Source of the DNA: an uncultured Gemmataceae bacterium
GTDB taxonomy: Bacteria; Planctomycetota; Planctomycetia; Gemmatales; Gemmataceae
DNA length: 64,000 nt
Direction: 5' to 3'
NCBI GenBank assembly: GCA_963750165.1
Contig: CAVVPN010000003.1
Location: 2,368,001-2,432,000, forward strand
Under the pieces are notes generated by a model. It saw nothing but the letters and a program-made list of their open reading frames with translations, was not told the origin of the DNA and ran no database searches. Shown here piece by piece: positions 20,368 to 26,499 of this stretch; the stretch's first letter is position 1, and each line of letters starts with the position of its first letter. Made by a program: the position numbers and the translations under genes.

Positions 20368-20582
20368 AATTAGCCACAGAGGACACAGAGGACACAGAGA
20401 GAAAGACAGAGAAAGAGTTTTCTCGGTCTGCCGATCTGTTACTGCGTCCGACCGTTCTGTTGTCATCACGCATTTTCGCAAGGCTTTGTTGTTCAATATC
20501 TTGCGGCAGCATGTGATGTCTTTAGAAAAGTCGGACGCAGTAATTGGTTTGTTTTCTCTCTCTGTGACCTCTGTGGCTAATT
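20368..20582. repeat. Nested inverted-repeat element with 9-mer CACAGAGGA repeats
   Basis: Outer AATTAGCCACAGAGG / CCTCTGTGGCTAATT; inner TTACTGCGTCCGAC 20439-52 / GTCGGACGCAGTAA 20530-43. Confidence 0.85.
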
Positions 20583-22007
20583 CTTCAACACTTCAATCTG
20601 CCCCGGGTCCGACACCATGATCTGCGGCCGTTCGCGGTACAGCGTCAGCGTGCCGGTCACGCGGATGCGCTGGCCGTCGAAGAGCGACCGCAGCGCCTTC
20701 GTGTCTTCTTTTTTGAACTTCGTCTGCGCTTCCTCGTTCAGCACCACCGTGAAGTTACCGTCGTTGCGGTAGTTCTCCTCGGAGTTCAAAAACACCAGCT
20801 TCGCGCCGCCGCTGGCCCCGGTCGATTGCACCTTCATCTCGACCGTCACCTTCTTGTCGAGGTTGGCCTTCACCACCTTCGGCGTCAGCTCCTCGCCGCT
20901 CGCCAGCTTCGGCCCCTTGTCCTTCTGCGCCGGCTGCAGCACGCGCAACGGCAGCTTTTGCCGGATCGTCACGTCGCCGTCCACGTCGCGGATCTGCAGG
21001 CTGACCGTCGGCGTTTTCGCGTCCCAGTCAATCGCGATGAAGCCGAAGTTGTCGCCGGTGTTCATCGTCATCACGCGGTGCCGGTTCACCAGTTGTTTGC
21101 GCCAGCCGCTCTTGAAGCCCTGGTTCAACCCGCTGCTCGTCAGGTCGAAGAGCGGGTAGCCAAGGCCCGCGTCGATCACCGACAATTCCGCCATGTGCAG
21201 GTCGCCGCTCAGCACCACGACGCCGTTCGCCTTCGTGTCCTTCAGCAGTTGGAACAGCCGCGCGCGCTCGCGCGGCAGGTTCATCCACTTCTCGAACGGC
21301 TGGTCCTCCGCCACCAGCTGAATGCTGGAGCACAACAGCCGCAGCTGCGCCGGCTCGCGCAGTTGCCGCTCCAGCCATTTCCACTGCGCCTCGCCCAGGA
21401 TGGTCTTGGTCGGCTCGTCGTCGGGGACGTAGGTGCCGCCCTTGCCCGCCTGCTTCAGCGGGCTGCGGAAAAAGCGCGTGTCCAGCAGGATCACCTGCAC
21501 GCGCTGCCCCGGTGGGCCGAACAGCTTCGCGTCGTATACCCCCTCCTGCTGGCGCCGCGGCGAATCCGCCGGCTCGCCGAAGAAGTCCAGGAACAGCTTC
21601 TGTGACTGCTTCTTCAACGGGAACTCCGTGCCGGCGTCGTTCAGGCCGTAGTCGTGGTCGTCCCACGTTGCCAGGATGGGGCAGGTCTTCTTCAGCTTCT
21701 GAAAGCCCGGCACCTGCGCCAGCTTGTCATAGCTCTGCCGGATCAAGTCCACCGTCACGTTCCTTGTCAGTCGGTATCCCTTGTCGGCGGGGACGAGGTC
21801 AGCGTACATGGAATCGCCGATGAACAGGAACAACTGCGGTTTCGCCGCGACGATGGCGTTCCAGATCGGCTGCGGCTCGTGCTGGTTGGCGCAGGAGCCG
21901 AAGGCGATGCGTTCCAGGCGTGGGCTGGCCTTGGACTCCTGGGCGTGGGCCGCCGGTGGCAGCGCCAGCACGAGGGTTAGCAGGAACAGGGAACGGATCG
22001 GCTTCAT
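20577..22007 (-). CDS. phoD: Alkaline phosphatase D family protein with probable C-terminal OB-fold
   Basis: IAFGSC, FIGDSMYAD, TWDDHDYG, LLDTRFFR, LSGDLH; signal peptide. Confidence 0.9.
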   Translation of the reverse strand: MKPIRSLFLLTLVLALPPAAHAQESKASPRLERIAFGSCANQHEPQPIWNAIVAAKPQLFLFIGDSMYADLVPADKGYRLTRNVTVDLIRQSYDKLAQVPGFQKLKKTCPILATWDDHDYGLNDAGTEFPLKKQSQKLFLDFFGEPADSPRRQQEGVYDAKLFGPPGQRVQVILLDTRFFRSPLKQAGKGGTYVPDDEPTKTILGEAQWKWLERQLREPAQLRLLCSSIQLVAEDQPFEKWMNLPRERARLFQLLKDTKANGVVVLSGDLHMAELSVIDAGLGYPLFDLTSSGLNQGFKSGWRKQLVNRHRVMTMNTGDNFGFIAIDWDAKTPTVSLQIRDVDGDVTIRQKLPLRVLQPAQKDKGPKLASGEELTPKVVKANLDKKVTVEMKVQSTGASGGAKLVFLNSEENYRNDGNFTVVLNEEAQTKFKKEDTKALRSLFDGQRIRVTGTLTLYRERPQIMVSDPGQIEVLKN

Positions 22008-22232
22008 GGCAGGGCCTCTGGCGGGTCCGGGGTGCGCAGGGGCGACGGCGTTAATTAACGGAAACCGTGGCCGCGCAACCAGAGGGCAGGCGGCCCGAAT
22101 TCCAGGTCCGCTTTCCGGGCGCGTCTGCCTATAATGGAGGTAGCGGCAGGAGGCCGTTTCATCTCATATCATCTCACAGACCCCCCCGAACGGGCTTTGC
22201 GACGCATTCGGATAAACGCATGGGAATGCGTA

Positions 22233-23486
22233 TCAGTTAGACCGAATGCGTTGCATCGGCAGCACGTCCGGCCGCACAGCCGGTTCCGCTTCATCTTTCC
22301 AGAAGACGGGCACGATGCCAAGGGTTTCCTGCTCCTGAATCAGACAGGTGAGATTATGGCAGAGGATTTTGCAGAGCGATTCATTGATCATACCAGTGTC
22401 GCTCTTGCTGCGCACCGAGTCGCCGAACTTCCGCTTGATGGCGCTGAAGGTGGACTCGACGTTGCTTCGCTTGTGATAGTGCCGCAAAAACTCCTCGCGC
22501 TGGAACTGGAAGAAGTGGAAGGCGCGCTCGAACTGGCCGCCGACGGCGCCGGTGGCGTTGCTCTTGAACGGGATGAACGCCGCGGCGCCGCACGCGGCGA
22601 TTTCCTCAAAGTTCTCCAGCGACGCATACGCCTTGTCGGCCGACACCTCCCCGATCTCAAAGCGCCGCCGCGTCTCCTTCACCAGCGGCACGAACTGCGG
22701 ACAATCCCCGGAGTCTTTGTCCAGAATACGGACAGCGGTGACGATGTTCGTCTTCACGCCGCACGCCAGGTGGACTTTCACCCACACGCACCTGTTGCGG
22801 GTGATGCCATACTTCTCGTCCAGCCATTTTTCGTAGCGGCAGCTGCCGAAGCCGCTGCTGTCGATGGCGAAGTCCGTCTCGACCACGCGGAGCGGGCTGG
22901 CGCTGATGGCGATGAGTTCCTTGAGGATCGGCGTGAAGAAAGCATCCTCGAAAAAACTGTTCACCTTCATGCCAGGGATGGGCTTGGTGGTGTGGCCGCG
23001 CTCGTGCGCGTCGAGCAGGTCGCAGGAGAAGCGCCGCGAGGACAGGCCGCAGTAGACCTTGAAGGCCATCGCAAACACGGCGTCGCGGCTCAGGTGTGGC
23101 TTGGGGCCGGGCAGGCTGCTGGAGCGATCGCGGTCGGGCAGGCGACTGCACAGGTCCGCGAGCAGCACTTGCAGGCGGCGCTTCTCCGTGGCTTGCGCCC
23201 TGTTGAACGCCGGCCAGTCTTGCGCGTACGTCTTGCGGACGGGGATAACGTCGGTGTCGATGGCCGGGGCTTGCTCGCCGCCGTCGCGCTCGCAGGCCAG
23301 TTTCGCGGCGATGACGTGCTTGCACGGTTTGCCGGTCAGGCCGAAGTCTTCGCAGGTGCAGCCGGGCGGGATGATCGTGACTCGGTATTTGGTGGTAAGG
23401 CTGGTCTGGGAAGGAACAACCCAGGCGCTGCCGTCGTAGACGATTTTTGCACGCGCCGCGATCTCCAGGGCCTTCAGTTCACGCAT
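22233..23486 (-). CDS. SWIM zinc finger plus DDE transposase (DDE_Tnp_1, IS4/IS5-like)
   Basis: CTCEDF...CKH SWIM; AIDSSGF, VKVHLA, SADKAY, YHKRSNVESTFS. Confidence 0.9.
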   Translation of the reverse strand: MRELKALEIAARAKIVYDGSAWVVPSQTSLTTKYRVTIIPPGCTCEDFGLTGKPCKHVIAAKLACERDGGEQAPAIDTDVIPVRKTYAQDWPAFNRAQATEKRRLQVLLADLCSRLPDRDRSSSLPGPKPHLSRDAVFAMAFKVYCGLSSRRFSCDLLDAHERGHTTKPIPGMKVNSFFEDAFFTPILKELIAISASPLRVVETDFAIDSSGFGSCRYEKWLDEKYGITRNRCVWVKVHLACGVKTNIVTAVRILDKDSGDCPQFVPLVKETRRRFEIGEVSADKAYASLENFEEIAACGAAAFIPFKSNATGAVGGQFERAFHFFQFQREEFLRHYHKRSNVESTFSAIKRKFGDSVRSKSDTGMINESLCKILCHNLTCLIQEQETLGIVPVFWKDEAEPAVRPDVLPMQRIRSN

Positions 23487-23859
23487 ATCCACGTCGCCAC
23501 CCTGCCTCTCGGAAGGCGCGCACGTAGAATGGAGTTGAGGGCCGCATTCGGGCGTGCAAGCGCCGGAGTGTTGTCCGCTCCAGGGGCTGTTACTAGCAGT
23601 CCCTGGAGCATCATTTCTCCGCACGATAGTACGCAATTTATCTCCACAAGTACAGGTCAGCAGTGGACTTACGAATATTTTTCCGCTGCGGAAAAACGGT
23701 CGGTTGCGCAGAAGCACGTCAGGGGCGCGTCAGGATGAGGCAGGAGCGCAGAAGGCGCCGTCTACGACCAACCGGGCGGTCTGGGGCCGGATCGCGTCGG
23801 GGGCGTTTCTGGGAAGCCGTCTGGAAAATCTGACAAGCAGCGACAACAATAGAAAAAGG

Positions 23860-23946
23860 TGGGGGTGGGGGGACTCGAACCCCCAAATGGTGAAACACCA
23901 CGGCGGGTTGGGAACCCGCTGCGTTTTCCAGTTTCGCCACACCCCC
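23860..23946 (-). tRNA. Non-canonical class II tRNA: Leu-type body with anticodon CCC (Gly)
   Basis: GGGGGTG TG GCG-AAACTGGAAAA-CGC A GCGGG-TTCCCAA-CCCGC, long V-arm, GGGGG-TTCGAGT-CCCCC CACCCCC A; all stems fully paired. Confidence 0.88.
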
Positions 23947-23958
23947 GCAGGCTGTTGC

Positions 23959-24030
23959 AGACGCGGACCCGAGTTGAACGGGCTTTCTGGACTTTGCCAA
24001 GTTCCCCGAGAAACCGTCCTCCCCCGCGTC
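23959..24030 (-). ncRNA. tRNA-like element with irregular anticodon arm
   Basis: Acceptor GACGCGG/CCGCGTC plus T discriminator, T-arm GCCCG-TTCAACT-CGGGT, D-arm GAGG-ACGGTT-TCTC; anticodon arm GGAACTTGGCAAAGTCC pairs only with a bulge. Confidence 0.6.
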
Positions 24031-24277
24031 GTTTGCTACAGCATGTTGGCTGGTCGGGCAGGAGTTACCGACTCCTGCCCGATCGCCAGCCTTCACCGGT
24101 TTTTCCCAGCCCTCCCAGGTTTGATCGGGTTGACTTTTGGCCTACGGATGGGTATCTCCCCATCCGCTGTCGGACATTTCCAGCAATGTCCGACGCACGC
24201 CACGCAGACAGATCATCGACGAAAGCAAAACCTAACTTTAGGGACAACCCCCTTACCGTCAGACAGGAGAGACGGCA

Positions 24278-24624
24278 ATGACCAAGCTGCGCAGAAGGGC
24301 CACGCGACTCGCCCCGTGTCCTTCAGGATGCCCGTTGGTGTGTACGACGACTTCGTTTCGGTTGCAGAAACGAGGGGCGTGGATGTGTCGGGCTTGCTGA
24401 ATTGGATGTGCGCCGAGTACCGCCCCACGCTCTTGAAAAAGAAGGCGGATTACGAAGCCGCCATGCTGGAGGCTGCGGCGGCAAGCCTGCGCGAAAACCT
24501 GGCTTCACCCGGGGAAAGCCGCAAGGCGCTTGGCGTGCTGCGCGACCTGCTCAAACAGCTTCAGGATATGTACGCGGCTCTGTCGAAGCGGGCTCTCGAC
24601 GAGGACGAAAGACGGGCCGGGTGA
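24278..24624 (+). CDS. Ribbon-helix-helix-like DNA-binding protein; probable 1-nt indel near 24295, otherwise in-frame ATG at 24328
   Basis: RPVSFRMPVGVYDDFVSVAETRGVDVSGLLNWMCAEY beta-alpha-G-alpha pattern; SD GGAG before ATG 24278. Confidence 0.55.
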
Positions 24625-24705
24625 CAGGGGACTGCGCGCCCCTTTCGGTCGGGCATTATTCATTCATCATCAACGACCGGGAGTGCGCGAACACGGCTGA
24701 ACACG

Positions 24706-24746
24706 AAACGCCACCAACCAAGGCGCCTTGGTTGGTGGCGTTTTTT
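24706..24746 (+). terminator. 38-bp perfect palindrome followed by a T run
   Basis: AAACGCCACCAACCAAGGCGCCTTGGTTGGTGGCGTTTTTT. Confidence 0.75.
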
Positions 24747-24903
24747 CATTGGATCGAATGCGTCGCAACTCGCCCGAATGCGTCACAACCGGCGAATGCG
24801 TGGCAAAGCCCCCCGAACGACCGGGGGAGACCGGAGAATCCCTGTTCTCACCCTGGCCGGACGACCGTAAAGCAAGGACTTTGACTGCCACTGGAGGACT
24901 GCG

Positions 24904-26048
24904 ATGCTGGAAACCACCCGCCTGCTCCGCGACCTGGTGGCCCTGCCGAGCGTCAACCCGATGGGCCGCACCGGCCCCAACCCCGACTTCTTCGAGCACC
25001 GCGTCACCGCCTACCTGGAAGCGTTCTTCCGCGACCTCGGCGTGTCCTGTGAGCGGCAGACGGTGGCGCCGTCGCGCGACAACATCATCGCGCGCTGCGT
25101 GCTGCCGGGGCGCGGCGGACGCTGCTGCTCGAAGCCCACCAGGACACGGTGCCGACCGATAACATGACCATCGAACCGTTCGGGGCGAAGATCGACGGCA
25201 ACCGCCTGTACGGCCGCGGCGCCTGCGACATCAAGGGCGGCCTGGCGGCCATGCTGGCGGCGTTCGCGCGTGTGGCCCGCGAGAAGCCGGCAGGTGCCGC
25301 CAACGTCGTGCTGGCCTGCACCGTGGACGAGGAGTACACGTTTCTCGGCGTGCAGCGCCTGGTGCGCGACGGCCTGAAGGCGGACGCAGCCGTCGTCGCC
25401 GAGCCGACCGACCTCAACATCGTCCATGCCCACAAGGGCGTCGTCCGCTGGGACATCGTCACGACGGGTCGTTCGTGTCACAGTTCGCGGCCCGAGCAGG
25501 GCCAAAACGCTATCTACTTCATGGGCCGCGTGCTGACCGCCCTGGAGCAGTACGCCGGGCAGCTGCACCAGTCGCGGCAGCATCCGCTGCTGGGCCGGCC
25601 GACCCTGAGCGTTGGCCGCGTCGAGGGTGGCACCAGCGTTAACACGGTGCCGGATCGCTGCCGCATCGAGATCGACCGCCGGCTGATCCCGGGCGAGGAG
25701 CCGCTGGCGGCGCAGCAGGACGTGACGCAGTTCTTGCAGGGCCGGCTGGGGCCGGACGTGCCGTTTACATGTGTGCCGCCGTGGATGAGCAAGGGCGCCC
25801 TGAACCCGGAGGGCTCCGAGGCGCTGGTGCAGGAATTCGGCGCCGTGATCGACGCCGTGCGCGGCCGGCACACCGTCGAGGCGGTGCCGTTCGGCACCGA
25901 CGCCTCCAACATCGCCGCGGCGGGCGTGCCGGCCATCGTGTTCGGCCCCGGTGACATCGGCAAGGCCCACACCTGCGACGAGTGGGTGCCGCTCGATGAA
26001 GTCGAGACGGCCAGTGAGATCCTGTTTCGCTGGCTCTGCCAGGGTTGA
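24904..26048 (+). CDS. M20 family metallopeptidase (ArgE/DapE-like), frameshift ~25110
   Basis: LVALPSVNP; EAHQDTVP after the shift; YGRGACDIKGG, VDEE, AEPT, GTDA, AHTCDEW. Confidence 0.9.
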
Positions 26049-26079
26049 TACGGAATCGCCTTGGCGGTTCTTGTTTCTG

Positions 26080-26140
26080 GTCGGAGCCCGAGCGCCAGTG
26101 AGGGGCAGGCTTTGCCCCGCGCTGGCGCTCGGGCTCCGAC
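26080..26140. repeat. REP palindrome family GAGCCCGAGCGCCAG
   Basis: Related copies at 28997-29056 and 34407-34452, partial at ~33338-33350. Confidence 0.85.
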
Positions 26141-26168
26141 TTGACGGCCGCGCCGGGTCATCTATCAT
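26141..26168 (+). promoter_or_regulatory. Sigma70-like promoter for tRNA-Glu
   Basis: TTGACG-16 bp-TATCAT, 25 nt before the tRNA. Confidence 0.6.
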
Positions 26169-26193
26169 GAGGAGGGAAGTACGGATCGCACAT

Positions 26194-26266
26194 GGCCCCG
26201 TCGTCTAGAGGCCCAGGACAGCGGCTTTTCACGCCGCCAACACGGGTTCGAATCCCGTCGGGGTCA
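26194..26266 (+). tRNA. tRNA-Glu(TTC)
   Basis: GGCCCCG acceptor, GCGGC-TT TTC AC-GCCGC anticodon arm, GGTTCGAATCC; CCA not encoded. Confidence 0.95.
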
Positions 26267-26499
26267 ATCAGAAGCGCTGGAATGACAAGGGTTTAGAGAG
26301 GCATCTGCTGCAACAAAACTCTACCCGCTCGACTCGTACTGACTGGAGCGGTTCGCACGCGGATCGCGCCCGCGGTGGGACGGCGGGCACAGCTTGACCA
26401 GCAGGGGCCTGTACTGCCACAGCAAGGAGGCCAAGGGGGCCAAGGTTTGCACACGTCGAGAATCGGCGCCCTGGCCCCGTGCGGCTGGCACGGCGCGAC

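Follow-up and report, generated by a model that had tools for sequence, protein, structure and literature searches.

A few natural groups of transfer RNAs (tRNAs) are known to depart from the codon table, namely the nev-tRNAs of nematodes, the allo-tRNAs of acidobacteria, tRNAProX of Streptomyces and the yeast CUG clades. The nematode nev-tRNA-Gly(CCC) derives from tRNA-Leu, with a class II body, a 7/5 arrangement of acceptor and T stems and A73 as its discriminator base (Hamashima et al., 2012, PMC3333845; here and below, what we take from cited papers refers to the parts of their text available to us). It belongs to a family with several foreign anticodons whose members are leucylated in vitro, for which A73 and the variable arm are needed; the survey covered 44 eukaryotes and two further nematode genomes, and no bacteria (PMC3333845). 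The bacterial, largely acidobacterial allo-tRNAs are long-arm tRNAs in which anticodon and identity do not match, and they act in E. coli by missense or nonsense suppression (Mukai et al., 2017, PMC5389517). Identity elements decided whether those tested inserted serine, alanine or cysteine, some allo-tRNAs adjoin genes for transposon-related proteins or toxin-antitoxin systems, and an allo-tRNA(UAU) pseudogene overlaps a transposon-related open reading frame (ORF) (PMC5389517). In Streptomyces and relatives, tRNAProX is a natural mismatch of identity and anticodon that has been read as encoded mistranslation (PMC11415595). Here we describe a bacterial tRNA gene, called tRNA(CCC) below, in which an apparently leucine-type body carries the glycine anticodon CCC and which lies inside an insertion sequence (IS). 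It was found in a window of 64000 nucleotides, which is the whole stretch of DNA analysed (positions 2368001 to 2432000 of contig CAVVPN010000003.1, assembly GCA_963750165.1), from an uncultured Gemmataceae bacterium with a genome of 9.6 Mb in 12 contigs at 66% G+C. Coordinates are window positions unless another contig is named.

Of the two tRNA genes that ARAGORN called in the window, one occupies 23858-23946 of the minus strand and was given the anticodon ccc. The Rfam model RF00005 matched full-length at 23946-23860 with 57.3 bits (E 9.8e-10), in the same range as the 59.6 bits that Rfam gave to an ordinary tRNA-Glu(UUC) at 26193-26267, 2.3 kb away. Together with the sequence itself and alignments to host and related tRNAs, these calls describe the gene at 23860-23946 (minus strand) as a class II, that is long-arm, tRNA of 7/5 arrangement with anticodon CCC, A73 and a Leu-type D arm. 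Read from the sequence, the acceptor stem has 7 bp, the T stem 5 bp and the anticodon stem 5 bp, the last closing a 7-nt loop UU-CCC-AA. The D stem has 3 bp (4 if an A-A mismatch is counted) and a loop of 11 nt, and the variable region of 18 nt forms a 6-bp stem that includes one G-U pair. Outside the variable arm, each of the 20 stem pairs is a standard one. The discriminator is followed by CC and a run of T, so that the 3' CCA is incompletely encoded, and the other host tRNA genes examined likewise do not encode CCA. A pattern combining the Leu-type D arm with YU-CCC-R matched once in the window, against none of 100 shuffles. Single-sequence folding returned a minimum-energy structure that was not a cloverleaf (z -2.4), a measure that is uninformative for tRNAs. 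A first-pass annotation, made from the letters of this DNA alone, had listed the 7/5 arrangement, the 3-bp D stem with its 11-nt loop, the long arm, A15/U48, A73 and the loop TT-CCC-AA, and each of these was found again by ARAGORN, Rfam or direct reading. It had given no strand, which we find to be minus, and it had correctly set the gene apart from the allo-tRNAs of 8/4 or 9/3 form, the arrangement here being 7/5.

The amino-acid identity of the body was judged against published identity sets and against the tRNAs of the host. Leucine identity in E. coli depends on A73, G18G19, A20a and a Levitt pair A15-U48, with anticodon and long arm dispensable; G73 of tRNA-Ser is an antideterminant for leucyl-tRNA synthetase (LeuRS), and C2-G71 of tRNA-Leu is an antideterminant against seryl-tRNA synthetase (SerRS) (PMC9976931). 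The core of tRNA(CCC) contains A14, A15 opposite U48, G18G19 and A20a, with U as the last unpaired base before the T stem. Its D arm aligned without gaps to host tRNA-Leu(GAG) and tRNA-Leu(CAG), and its D-loop length is that of two of the four host tRNA-Leu aligned. Outside the variable arm and the anticodon, these four host tRNA-Leu came closest, at 65-70% identity, against 61% for a host tRNA-Ser and 59% for the host tRNA-Tyr. On the 3' side of the extra arm stand two unpaired U, as in host tRNA-Leu and unlike host tRNA-Ser, and the G73, Ser-type D loop and single unpaired base 3' of the extra arm that mark tRNA-Ser were not found in tRNA(CCC). A leucine anticodon (NAG or YAA) was not found either, its place being taken by CCC. 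The anticodon loop UUCCCAA recurs unchanged in the host tRNA-Gly(CCC), a separate canonical class I gene on another contig, and lies by eye three substitutions from the CAA and CAG loops of host tRNA-Leu.

The five short host tRNA-Gly examined all have U73, a short variable loop, G1-C72, C2-G71 and G3-C70. Where a tRNA-Gly has a variable loop of 4-5 nt, U73 and C2-G71, tRNA(CCC) has an 18-nt region, A73 and G2-C71; the glycine elements that it does contain are C35, C36, G1-C72 and G3-C70. The host encodes one LeuRS, of bacterial type and above its family cut-off. Its glycyl-tRNA synthetase (GlyRS) is of the dimeric type, and glyQ is absent from the genome. The first-pass annotation had called the body leucine-identity and not glycine-type; the A73, A14, A15/U48 and G18G19/A20a D loop shared with host tRNA-Leu, and the U73 and short variable loop of all five host tRNA-Gly, support both statements as far as sequence can.

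tRNA(CCC) lies within a complete insertion sequence of 2618 bp (22193-24810), present as a single copy. We recognised its ends through comparison with those of a relative that occurs in three copies. The left terminal inverted repeat (22193-22210, plus strand) and the right one (24793-24810, minus strand) are identical at 17 of 18 positions, and further subterminal copies of a GAATGCGT-like motif lie inside the right end. A 9-bp target-site duplication, CCCCGAACG, flanks the element at 22184-22192 and, as the alignment also indicated, at 24811-24819. Each 18-nt terminus occurred once in the 9.6-Mb genome, and BLAST of 21800-24800 against the host genome returned no second copy. The transposase gene (22233-23486, minus strand) encodes in an intact frame a 417-aa protein in which Pfam recognised DDE_Tnp_1 and a SWIM zinc finger, and this 417-aa form (P0001) aligned full-length with its homologues. 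Its start at 23486 lies 373 nt downstream of tRNA(CCC) on the same strand. The element thus has the DDE transposase, terminal inverted repeats and target-site duplication by which the IS5 family is recognised; against the NCBIfam IS5 model NF033579 the transposase scored 107.2 bits, below the 140-bit cut-off. The DNA of the element upstream of tRNA(CCC) (23947-24792) contains a perfect 10-bp hairpin at ~24057-24081 and, by ORF list and profile search, no recognisable accessory ORF. Apart from the hairpin, the sole candidate feature there is a plus-strand ORF of 98 aa at 24328-24624, which belongs to no Pfam or NCBIfam family.

The surroundings of the element bear on its history. From sucC to the gene of an M20 peptidase the distance is 200-580 nt in two relatives, against 4.5 kb in the host, where a PhoD-like gene and the 2618-bp element fill the interval. 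BLAST of tRNA(CCC) gave no match in any of 40 related genomes, and among 401 genomes of the host phylum the transposase turned up in 3, the host included, the other two being fragments. Because the sucC-M20 interval is short in relatives, the tRNA is without a match in those 40 genomes and the transposase occurs in so few genomes of the phylum, we read the element as a recent, foreign insertion, with tRNA(CCC) as its passenger. Interest thus shifts from the tRNA alone to the whole insertion sequence and the family to which it belongs. The first-pass reading of the tRNA as a leucine-type body with a glycine anticodon stood at the level of sequence; it had missed this insertion-sequence context, the dimeric type of the host GlyRS and the serine-like character of G2-C71 and the 6-bp extra arm. 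The PhoD-like phosphatase gene (20577-22007, minus strand), which lies between sucC and the IS and is absent from that place in L170 and L176, is a second lineage-specific insert beside it.

Homologues of the transposase number more than 6000 in metagenomes, with 60-80% identity among the best 120. Among 301 genomes of the phylum of G441 (L009, a Pyrinomonadaceae bacterium, Acidobacteriota) 8 matched, 76 genomes of one order yielded one further element, and none of 351 genomes of the phylum of G746 contained the transposase. Against plasmids, the search returned only IS5-family genes at 23-27% identity, without useful context. Nine distinct full-length elements were collected in this way through the transposase alone and with no reference to a tRNA. 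In six of the nine, ARAGORN and Rfam place a class II tRNA immediately before the transposase gene and in its orientation, whereas L187, L188 and L213 are without a tRNA. The cargo of L190 is a Leu-type tRNA with anticodon UUA and A73. The other five are Ser-type with G73, and their anticodons are UAU (L191), UAA (L194), CAA (L192), CCA (L189) and GCA (L186). A metagenome contig, L099, adds a Leu-type tRNA with anticodon GUC, the start of a 36%-identical transposase lying 377 nt downstream on the same strand. Taking the six relatives together with the window element and L099, the anticodon varies freely from one element to another and fits the body in none of the eight, and the discriminator follows the body type throughout, with A73 in 3/3 Leu-type and G73 in 5/5 Ser-type cargo tRNAs.

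One genome contains three 2533-bp copies of such an element (L191, L195 and L198), 99.9% identical and with the tRNA in each. The two copies whose flanks could be cleanly aligned, L191 and L195, each have their own 9-bp duplication. From near-identical tRNA-bearing copies with duplications of their own it follows that the cargo tRNA transposes together with the element. L190 has a 9-bp duplication too, and the same octamer opens all six ends of the window element, L190 and L191. In the relatives the tRNA is preceded, at a distance of 7-35 nt, by the end of a coiled-coil accessory ORF of 150-200 aa and is followed by a hairpin. Most of the relatives' cargo tRNAs encode the 3' CCA, and kept among cargo tRNAs are U33, the 7-nt loop, purine 37 and the tertiary bases of the T and D loops. 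The L190 tRNA is the closest relative of tRNA(CCC), with an identical acceptor stem and 83% identity outside the variable arm and anticodon, while the two transposases are only 46% identical. The stems of these two tRNAs differ by three compensatory double changes only (alignment columns 11-25, 32-40 and 66-80) and by no disruptive one, and across 16 aligned tRNAs all 320 of 320 stem cells were paired. In this alignment the compensatory changes show selection on the cargo cloverleaf.

We propose the following explanation. An IS5-like element with IS903-like ends entered the planctomycete chromosome between sucC and the M20 peptidase gene, bringing tRNA(CCC) as a passenger gene. The leucine-type body would allow the tRNA to be transcribed, processed and charged by the single LeuRS of the host whatever its anticodon, and the charged tRNA would read GGG as Leu at a low level. 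The element would then act as a mobile module for missense suppression, and its passenger would be what nev-tRNA-Gly(CCC) is in nematodes, but in bacteria and borne by a transposon. We give a probability of roughly 0.55 to the central claim, that tRNA(CCC) is charged with leucine and able to read GGG as Leu at a low level. Leucine and serine are the bacterial systems whose synthetases do not read the anticodon, and because these enzymes ignore it, charging of such bodies is expected whatever the anticodon. The limitation of the cargo bodies to the Leu and Ser types is in our view the strongest argument that charging matters, and it suggests that the mismatch is not accidental.

Codon use was examined for signs that the cargo tRNA serves its own element. 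Recoding of the transposase by the cargo tRNA was not supported, either in the window element or across seven elements. The window transposase follows the standard code and has 2 GGG among 23 Gly codons, at columns that vary between G and A and between G and S in 59 homologues, and none at a Leu column. In the seven elements compared there was no common column bearing the codon cognate to each cargo tRNA. The L194 transposase (G676:C26:18454-19713) has one in-frame TAA, which is not the codon read by its Ser-type tRNA(UAA). No dedicated synthetase was found in the element, and the genome has one LeuRS.

A number of observations weigh against the proposed decoding. In the relatives' transposases, codons cognate to the cargo tRNA fall at conserved Trp and zinc-finger Cys positions; the tRNA is not needed for reading its own element, and efficient misreading would damage it. 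Since GGG is not rare in the host (in 2278 long ORFs of high G+C at third codon positions it accounts for 14.4% of Gly codons and occurs 12.5 times per 1000 codons), efficient Gly-to-Leu decoding would be costly, which argues for weak use or none. Transposition does not require the tRNA, as three of the nine elements are without one. A promoter scan of 23500-24500 returned no sigma-70-like sites; by eye, a weak promoter-like TTGGCA-17-TCAACT stands ~27 nt upstream of tRNA(CCC). The profile of the accessory ORF found nothing significant in 23900-24850 (best E 0.48). The dimeric type of the host GlyRS somewhat weakens the argument that U73 is needed, since the discriminator may matter less to it. 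Finally, tRNA(CCC) has serine-like traits of its own in G2-C71 and in a 6-bp extra arm that is longer than the arms of host tRNA-Leu. To these may be added G4-C69, C11-G24 and a 5' arm strand equal to that of host tRNA-Ser(CGA).

The last two points correspond to two alternatives in which the tRNA is charged with another amino acid. If the dimeric host GlyRS recognised C35, C36, G1-C72 and G3-C70, all of which are present, tRNA(CCC) would simply be one more tRNA-Gly, of unusual shape; in its favour are the absence of glyQ from the host and the independence of A73 shown by the GlyRS of the archaeon Aeropyrum (PMC9976931). We consider this very unlikely, because the U73 and C2-G71 found in all five host tRNA-Gly are absent from tRNA(CCC), because A73 is present in each of nine other published Leu-bodied tRNA(CCC) genes, most of which are without G3-C70, and because the sister tRNA of L190 has the same body with a stop anticodon. 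Charging by SerRS, which would turn Gly into Ser, draws on the serine-like pairs and arm just listed, on the absence of the C2-G71 antideterminant against SerRS (PMC9976931) and on the fact that most cargo tRNAs of this IS family are Ser-type. It has to contend with A73 in place of G73, with A15/U48 and a Leu-type D loop and with the two unpaired bases 3' of the extra arm, a host tRNA-Leu feature that host tRNA-Ser does not share, and we hold it to be a marginal prospect. The CCC anticodon rests on the assembly sequence, and a further alternative is that it is an assembly error. The first-pass annotation had warned of indel errors, and for the window at large this is plausible. The M20/M25/M40 peptidase gene (24728-26048, plus strand) is split between two frames close to a G run at 25110-25137, some 1.2 kb from the tRNA; its orthologue in the relative L168 is a single frame of 379 aa, so that the window gene reflects either an assembly indel or a real frameshift, and a 385-aa minus-strand ORF at 25011-26168 is its antisense shadow. 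Inside tRNA(CCC) the warning carries little weight. All homopolymer runs of the gene lie in perfectly paired stems and the anticodon loop is exactly 7 nt, where an indel would leave a loop of 6 or 8 nt or a broken stem; because the stems are all paired, the loop has its 7 nt and the adjacent 417-aa transposase aligns full-length to homologues, an indel or anticodon error is unlikely there. Moreover, at least two substitutions separate CCC from a Leu anticodon, and the same loop stands on Leu-type bodies in independent assemblies, which makes a miscalled anticodon the least credible account of the locus.

The main rival leaves charging aside. The tRNA could be kept as an RNA structure, a processing site for RNase P and RNase Z or an insulator before the transposase message, shielding it from the upstream accessory message or from transcripts reading through from outside, with an anticodon that drifts freely. 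The fixed same-strand position between accessory ORF and transposase suits this idea, as do the short distance of 7-35 nt from the accessory stop codon to the tRNA in relatives, the hairpin that follows it, the arbitrary-looking anticodons, one of them a stop anticodon, and the cognate codons at transposase positions where misreading would hurt. A processing signal would not, however, need Leu- or Ser-type class II bodies only, each with its matching discriminator (3/3 A73, 5/5 G73), nor would it explain the retention of U33, the 7-nt loop, purine 37 and the tertiary bases, the encoded CCA of most relatives or an anticodon loop in tRNA(CCC) identical to that of host tRNA-Gly(CCC). We therefore judge it improbable, if the most serious of the competing accounts. 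A further rival sees tRNA(CCC) as an inert hitch-hiker, silent or poorly expressed or charged in this host and bound to decay. The single copy, the foreignness of the element to the lineage, the apparent loss of the accessory ORF, the promoter scan without a hit and the incompletely encoded CCA would all fit. Decay itself is not seen, every stem pair and conserved tertiary base of the tRNA and the frame of the transposase being intact; the target duplication and ends are perfect, which marks the insertion as recent, so that it says little about what becomes of the gene in the long run. We regard inertness as quite unlikely, and charging with leucine remains our preferred explanation.

Leu-bodied tRNAs with foreign anticodons also occur beyond this IS family. 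We ran the pattern of a Leu-type D arm with YU-CCC-R on one genome each of 185579 species and obtained 28 loci, of which 11 are class II tRNA(CCC) genes (8 by ARAGORN and 3 more by Rfam). One locus, L021 (genome G443), is unpublished; without it the count is 10 of 27, and our claims do not depend on it. The 11 loci come from Acidobacteriota, Gemmatimonadota, Deinococcus marmoris and metagenome-assembled genomes (MAGs) assigned to 'Deltaproteobacteria', Paceibacteria, Opitutales/Alphaproteobacteria and Thiotrichales. The remaining 17 comprise nine loci where only a 5' tRNA-Leu half is copied, six chance matches in coding DNA, a remnant and a case resembling an intron. With L021 left out, A73 was present in all nine published tRNA(CCC) genes aligned, and G3-C70 was mostly absent. 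A transposase domain lay within 2.5 kb in 6 of the 10 tRNA(CCC) loci whose ORFs were scanned, IS1-like at three of them and IS1595-like, Mutator-like and IS4/5-like at one each. Among the other tRNA(CCC) loci there were no common conserved neighbours. One Gemmatimonadota genome (G445) holds four paralogous Leu-bodied tRNAs with anticodons CGC, GGC, CCC and GCC (L181, L183, L184, L185), and an Acidobacteriaceae genome (G444; L179, L182) has an IS1595-type transposase next to a UGG and a CCC tRNA that are separated by 1.2 kb.

A metagenome scan for the Leu-type D arm with any non-A35 anticodon gave at least 119 loci, at least 70 of them with an ARAGORN tRNA call. Anticodons among the matches listed were ~10 UUA, 9 UGG, 9 GUU, 6 CGC, 5 GCC and 1 CCC, and also included CUA, UCA, GUC, UGU and CCU. 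The idea that CCC is a specially favoured anticodon was rejected; it is one of many foreign anticodons and appears once among the matches listed. The GUU tRNAs deserve a separate remark. Nine of them (L035, L048, L055, L071, L083, L096, L108, L112 and L140) combine a Leu-like D arm with U1-A72 and G73, the asparagine set, and are apparent class II tRNA-Asn, with a long variable arm in all except L035 (76 nt). Because long-arm tRNAs of this kind keep the asparagine set, class II shape alone does not prove leucine identity.

Taken with the window element, these loci allow a broader view, which we advance only tentatively. Several unrelated IS families may use Leu- or Ser-type bodies as an anticodon-independent chassis and so spread suppressor tRNAs among soil bacteria, the families concerned being IS5-like and, beside the other Leu-bodied tRNA(CCC) genes, IS1-like, IS1595-like and Mutator-like. 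If this were true, the bodies would form a mobile, selectable source of codon ambiguity with a changing repertoire of missense and nonsense suppressors. The benefit could then lie with the element, through stress-triggered transposition, addiction or conflict with phages and rivals, or with the host, through adaptive mistranslation.

The same searches and the host genome yielded several other unusual tRNA loci. The nine half-copy loci are L004, L006, L008, L014, L015, L019, L022, L025 and L031. In those that come from MAGs of the Candidate Phyla Radiation, Kiritimatiellae and Lentisphaerales (L004-L022, L031), tRNA-Leu(CAA) has its 5' half, as far as U33, repeated ~80-100 nt upstream of the intact gene; downstream of the half copy at L015 no intact tRNA-Leu(CAA) was found. 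The half copies are followed by a conserved GC-rich segment with a TTGACT-like hexamer; here half a tRNA may have been turned into a promoter or leader. On two phage contigs (L002 3-90 and L003 1451-1537) a Leu-type tRNA has an anticodon region without a normal stem, which ARAGORN called Arg(ccg). At L032, L036, L043, L061, L065-L067, L073, L092, L102, L105, L120 and L007 the tRNA-Leu sequence breaks off within the anticodon loop, after U34 where examined, and an apparent group I intron follows, giving false matches to a 'UGA' anticodon. In the host genome (G000), 17 tRNA genes are packed closely together at 88560-90125 of contig C10, among them five tRNA-Leu whose arms are short or atypical and the only tRNA-Leu(UAA) of the genome; the array resembles those of phage or plasmid type. 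Smaller odd clusters lie at C3:2578659-2579056 and C11:2270561-2271064. A copy of tRNA-Leu(CAA) on contig C3 (2924156-2924240) has a scrambled 5' half and a 3' half equal to that of the intact gene 20 kb away, a pattern such as is left by an element that has integrated into a tRNA gene.

To the known cases tRNA(CCC) adds a canonical-fold, leucine-type bacterial example with the CCC anticodon of the main nematode form. It also links such a mismatched tRNA to a defined mobile element whose relatives bear a series with other anticodons. If such tRNAs are charged and used, insertion sequences would be vehicles that move codon ambiguity between genomes, which would matter for the evolution of genetic codes, for the question of what mistranslation costs and whether it can be of use, and for gene annotation. 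Current annotation works from the anticodon alone, so that genes of this kind are named tRNA-Gly, tRNA-Ile or 'tRNA-Stop'. The cargo bodies could also serve code engineering as ready-made chassis that look orthogonal.

A search of the literature, with subscription journals and supplements outside its scope, returned no bacterial Leu-bodied tRNA(CCC) and no such transposon-borne tRNAs, and gave only nev-tRNAs and allo-tRNAs as relatives. The available text of a 2024 review of mistranslating tRNAs (PMC11415595) makes no mention of a bacterial Leu-bodied tRNA with a Gly anticodon, and that of the allo-tRNA paper (PMC5389517) mentions neither 'CCC' nor 'LeuRS'. As an insertion sequence, the window element is like the IS5 family in its DDE_Tnp_1 transposase, terminal inverted repeats and 9-bp duplication. 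IS903 has similar termini and a 9-bp duplication. The element departs from the IS5 family in the added SWIM zinc finger, the score below the cut-off, the tRNA cargo and, in its relatives, the coiled-coil accessory ORF. tRNAProX is served by a dedicated synthetase, ProRSx. As described in the available text, it is a class I tRNA of proline type, in contrast to the class II, leucine-type tRNA(CCC), whose element brings no extra synthetase into a host with one LeuRS. The allo-tRNAs differ in their 8/4 or 9/3 fold and in a D arm like that of tRNA-Sec, with a long stem and a tetraloop, where tRNA(CCC) has a 7/5 fold, a 3-bp D stem, an 11-nt loop and A73. With the nev-tRNAs, tRNA(CCC) shares the class II body of 7/5 form, A73 and an anticodon that belongs to a class I amino acid, CCC. 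The nev-tRNAs are eukaryotic, chromosomal and multi-copy, with leucylation demonstrated, whereas tRNA(CCC) is bacterial, single-copy, a passenger of an insertion sequence and known by its sequence. By function, nev-tRNA-Gly(CCC) is thus the nearest described counterpart of this gene, and the allo-tRNAs are its nearest bacterial relatives.

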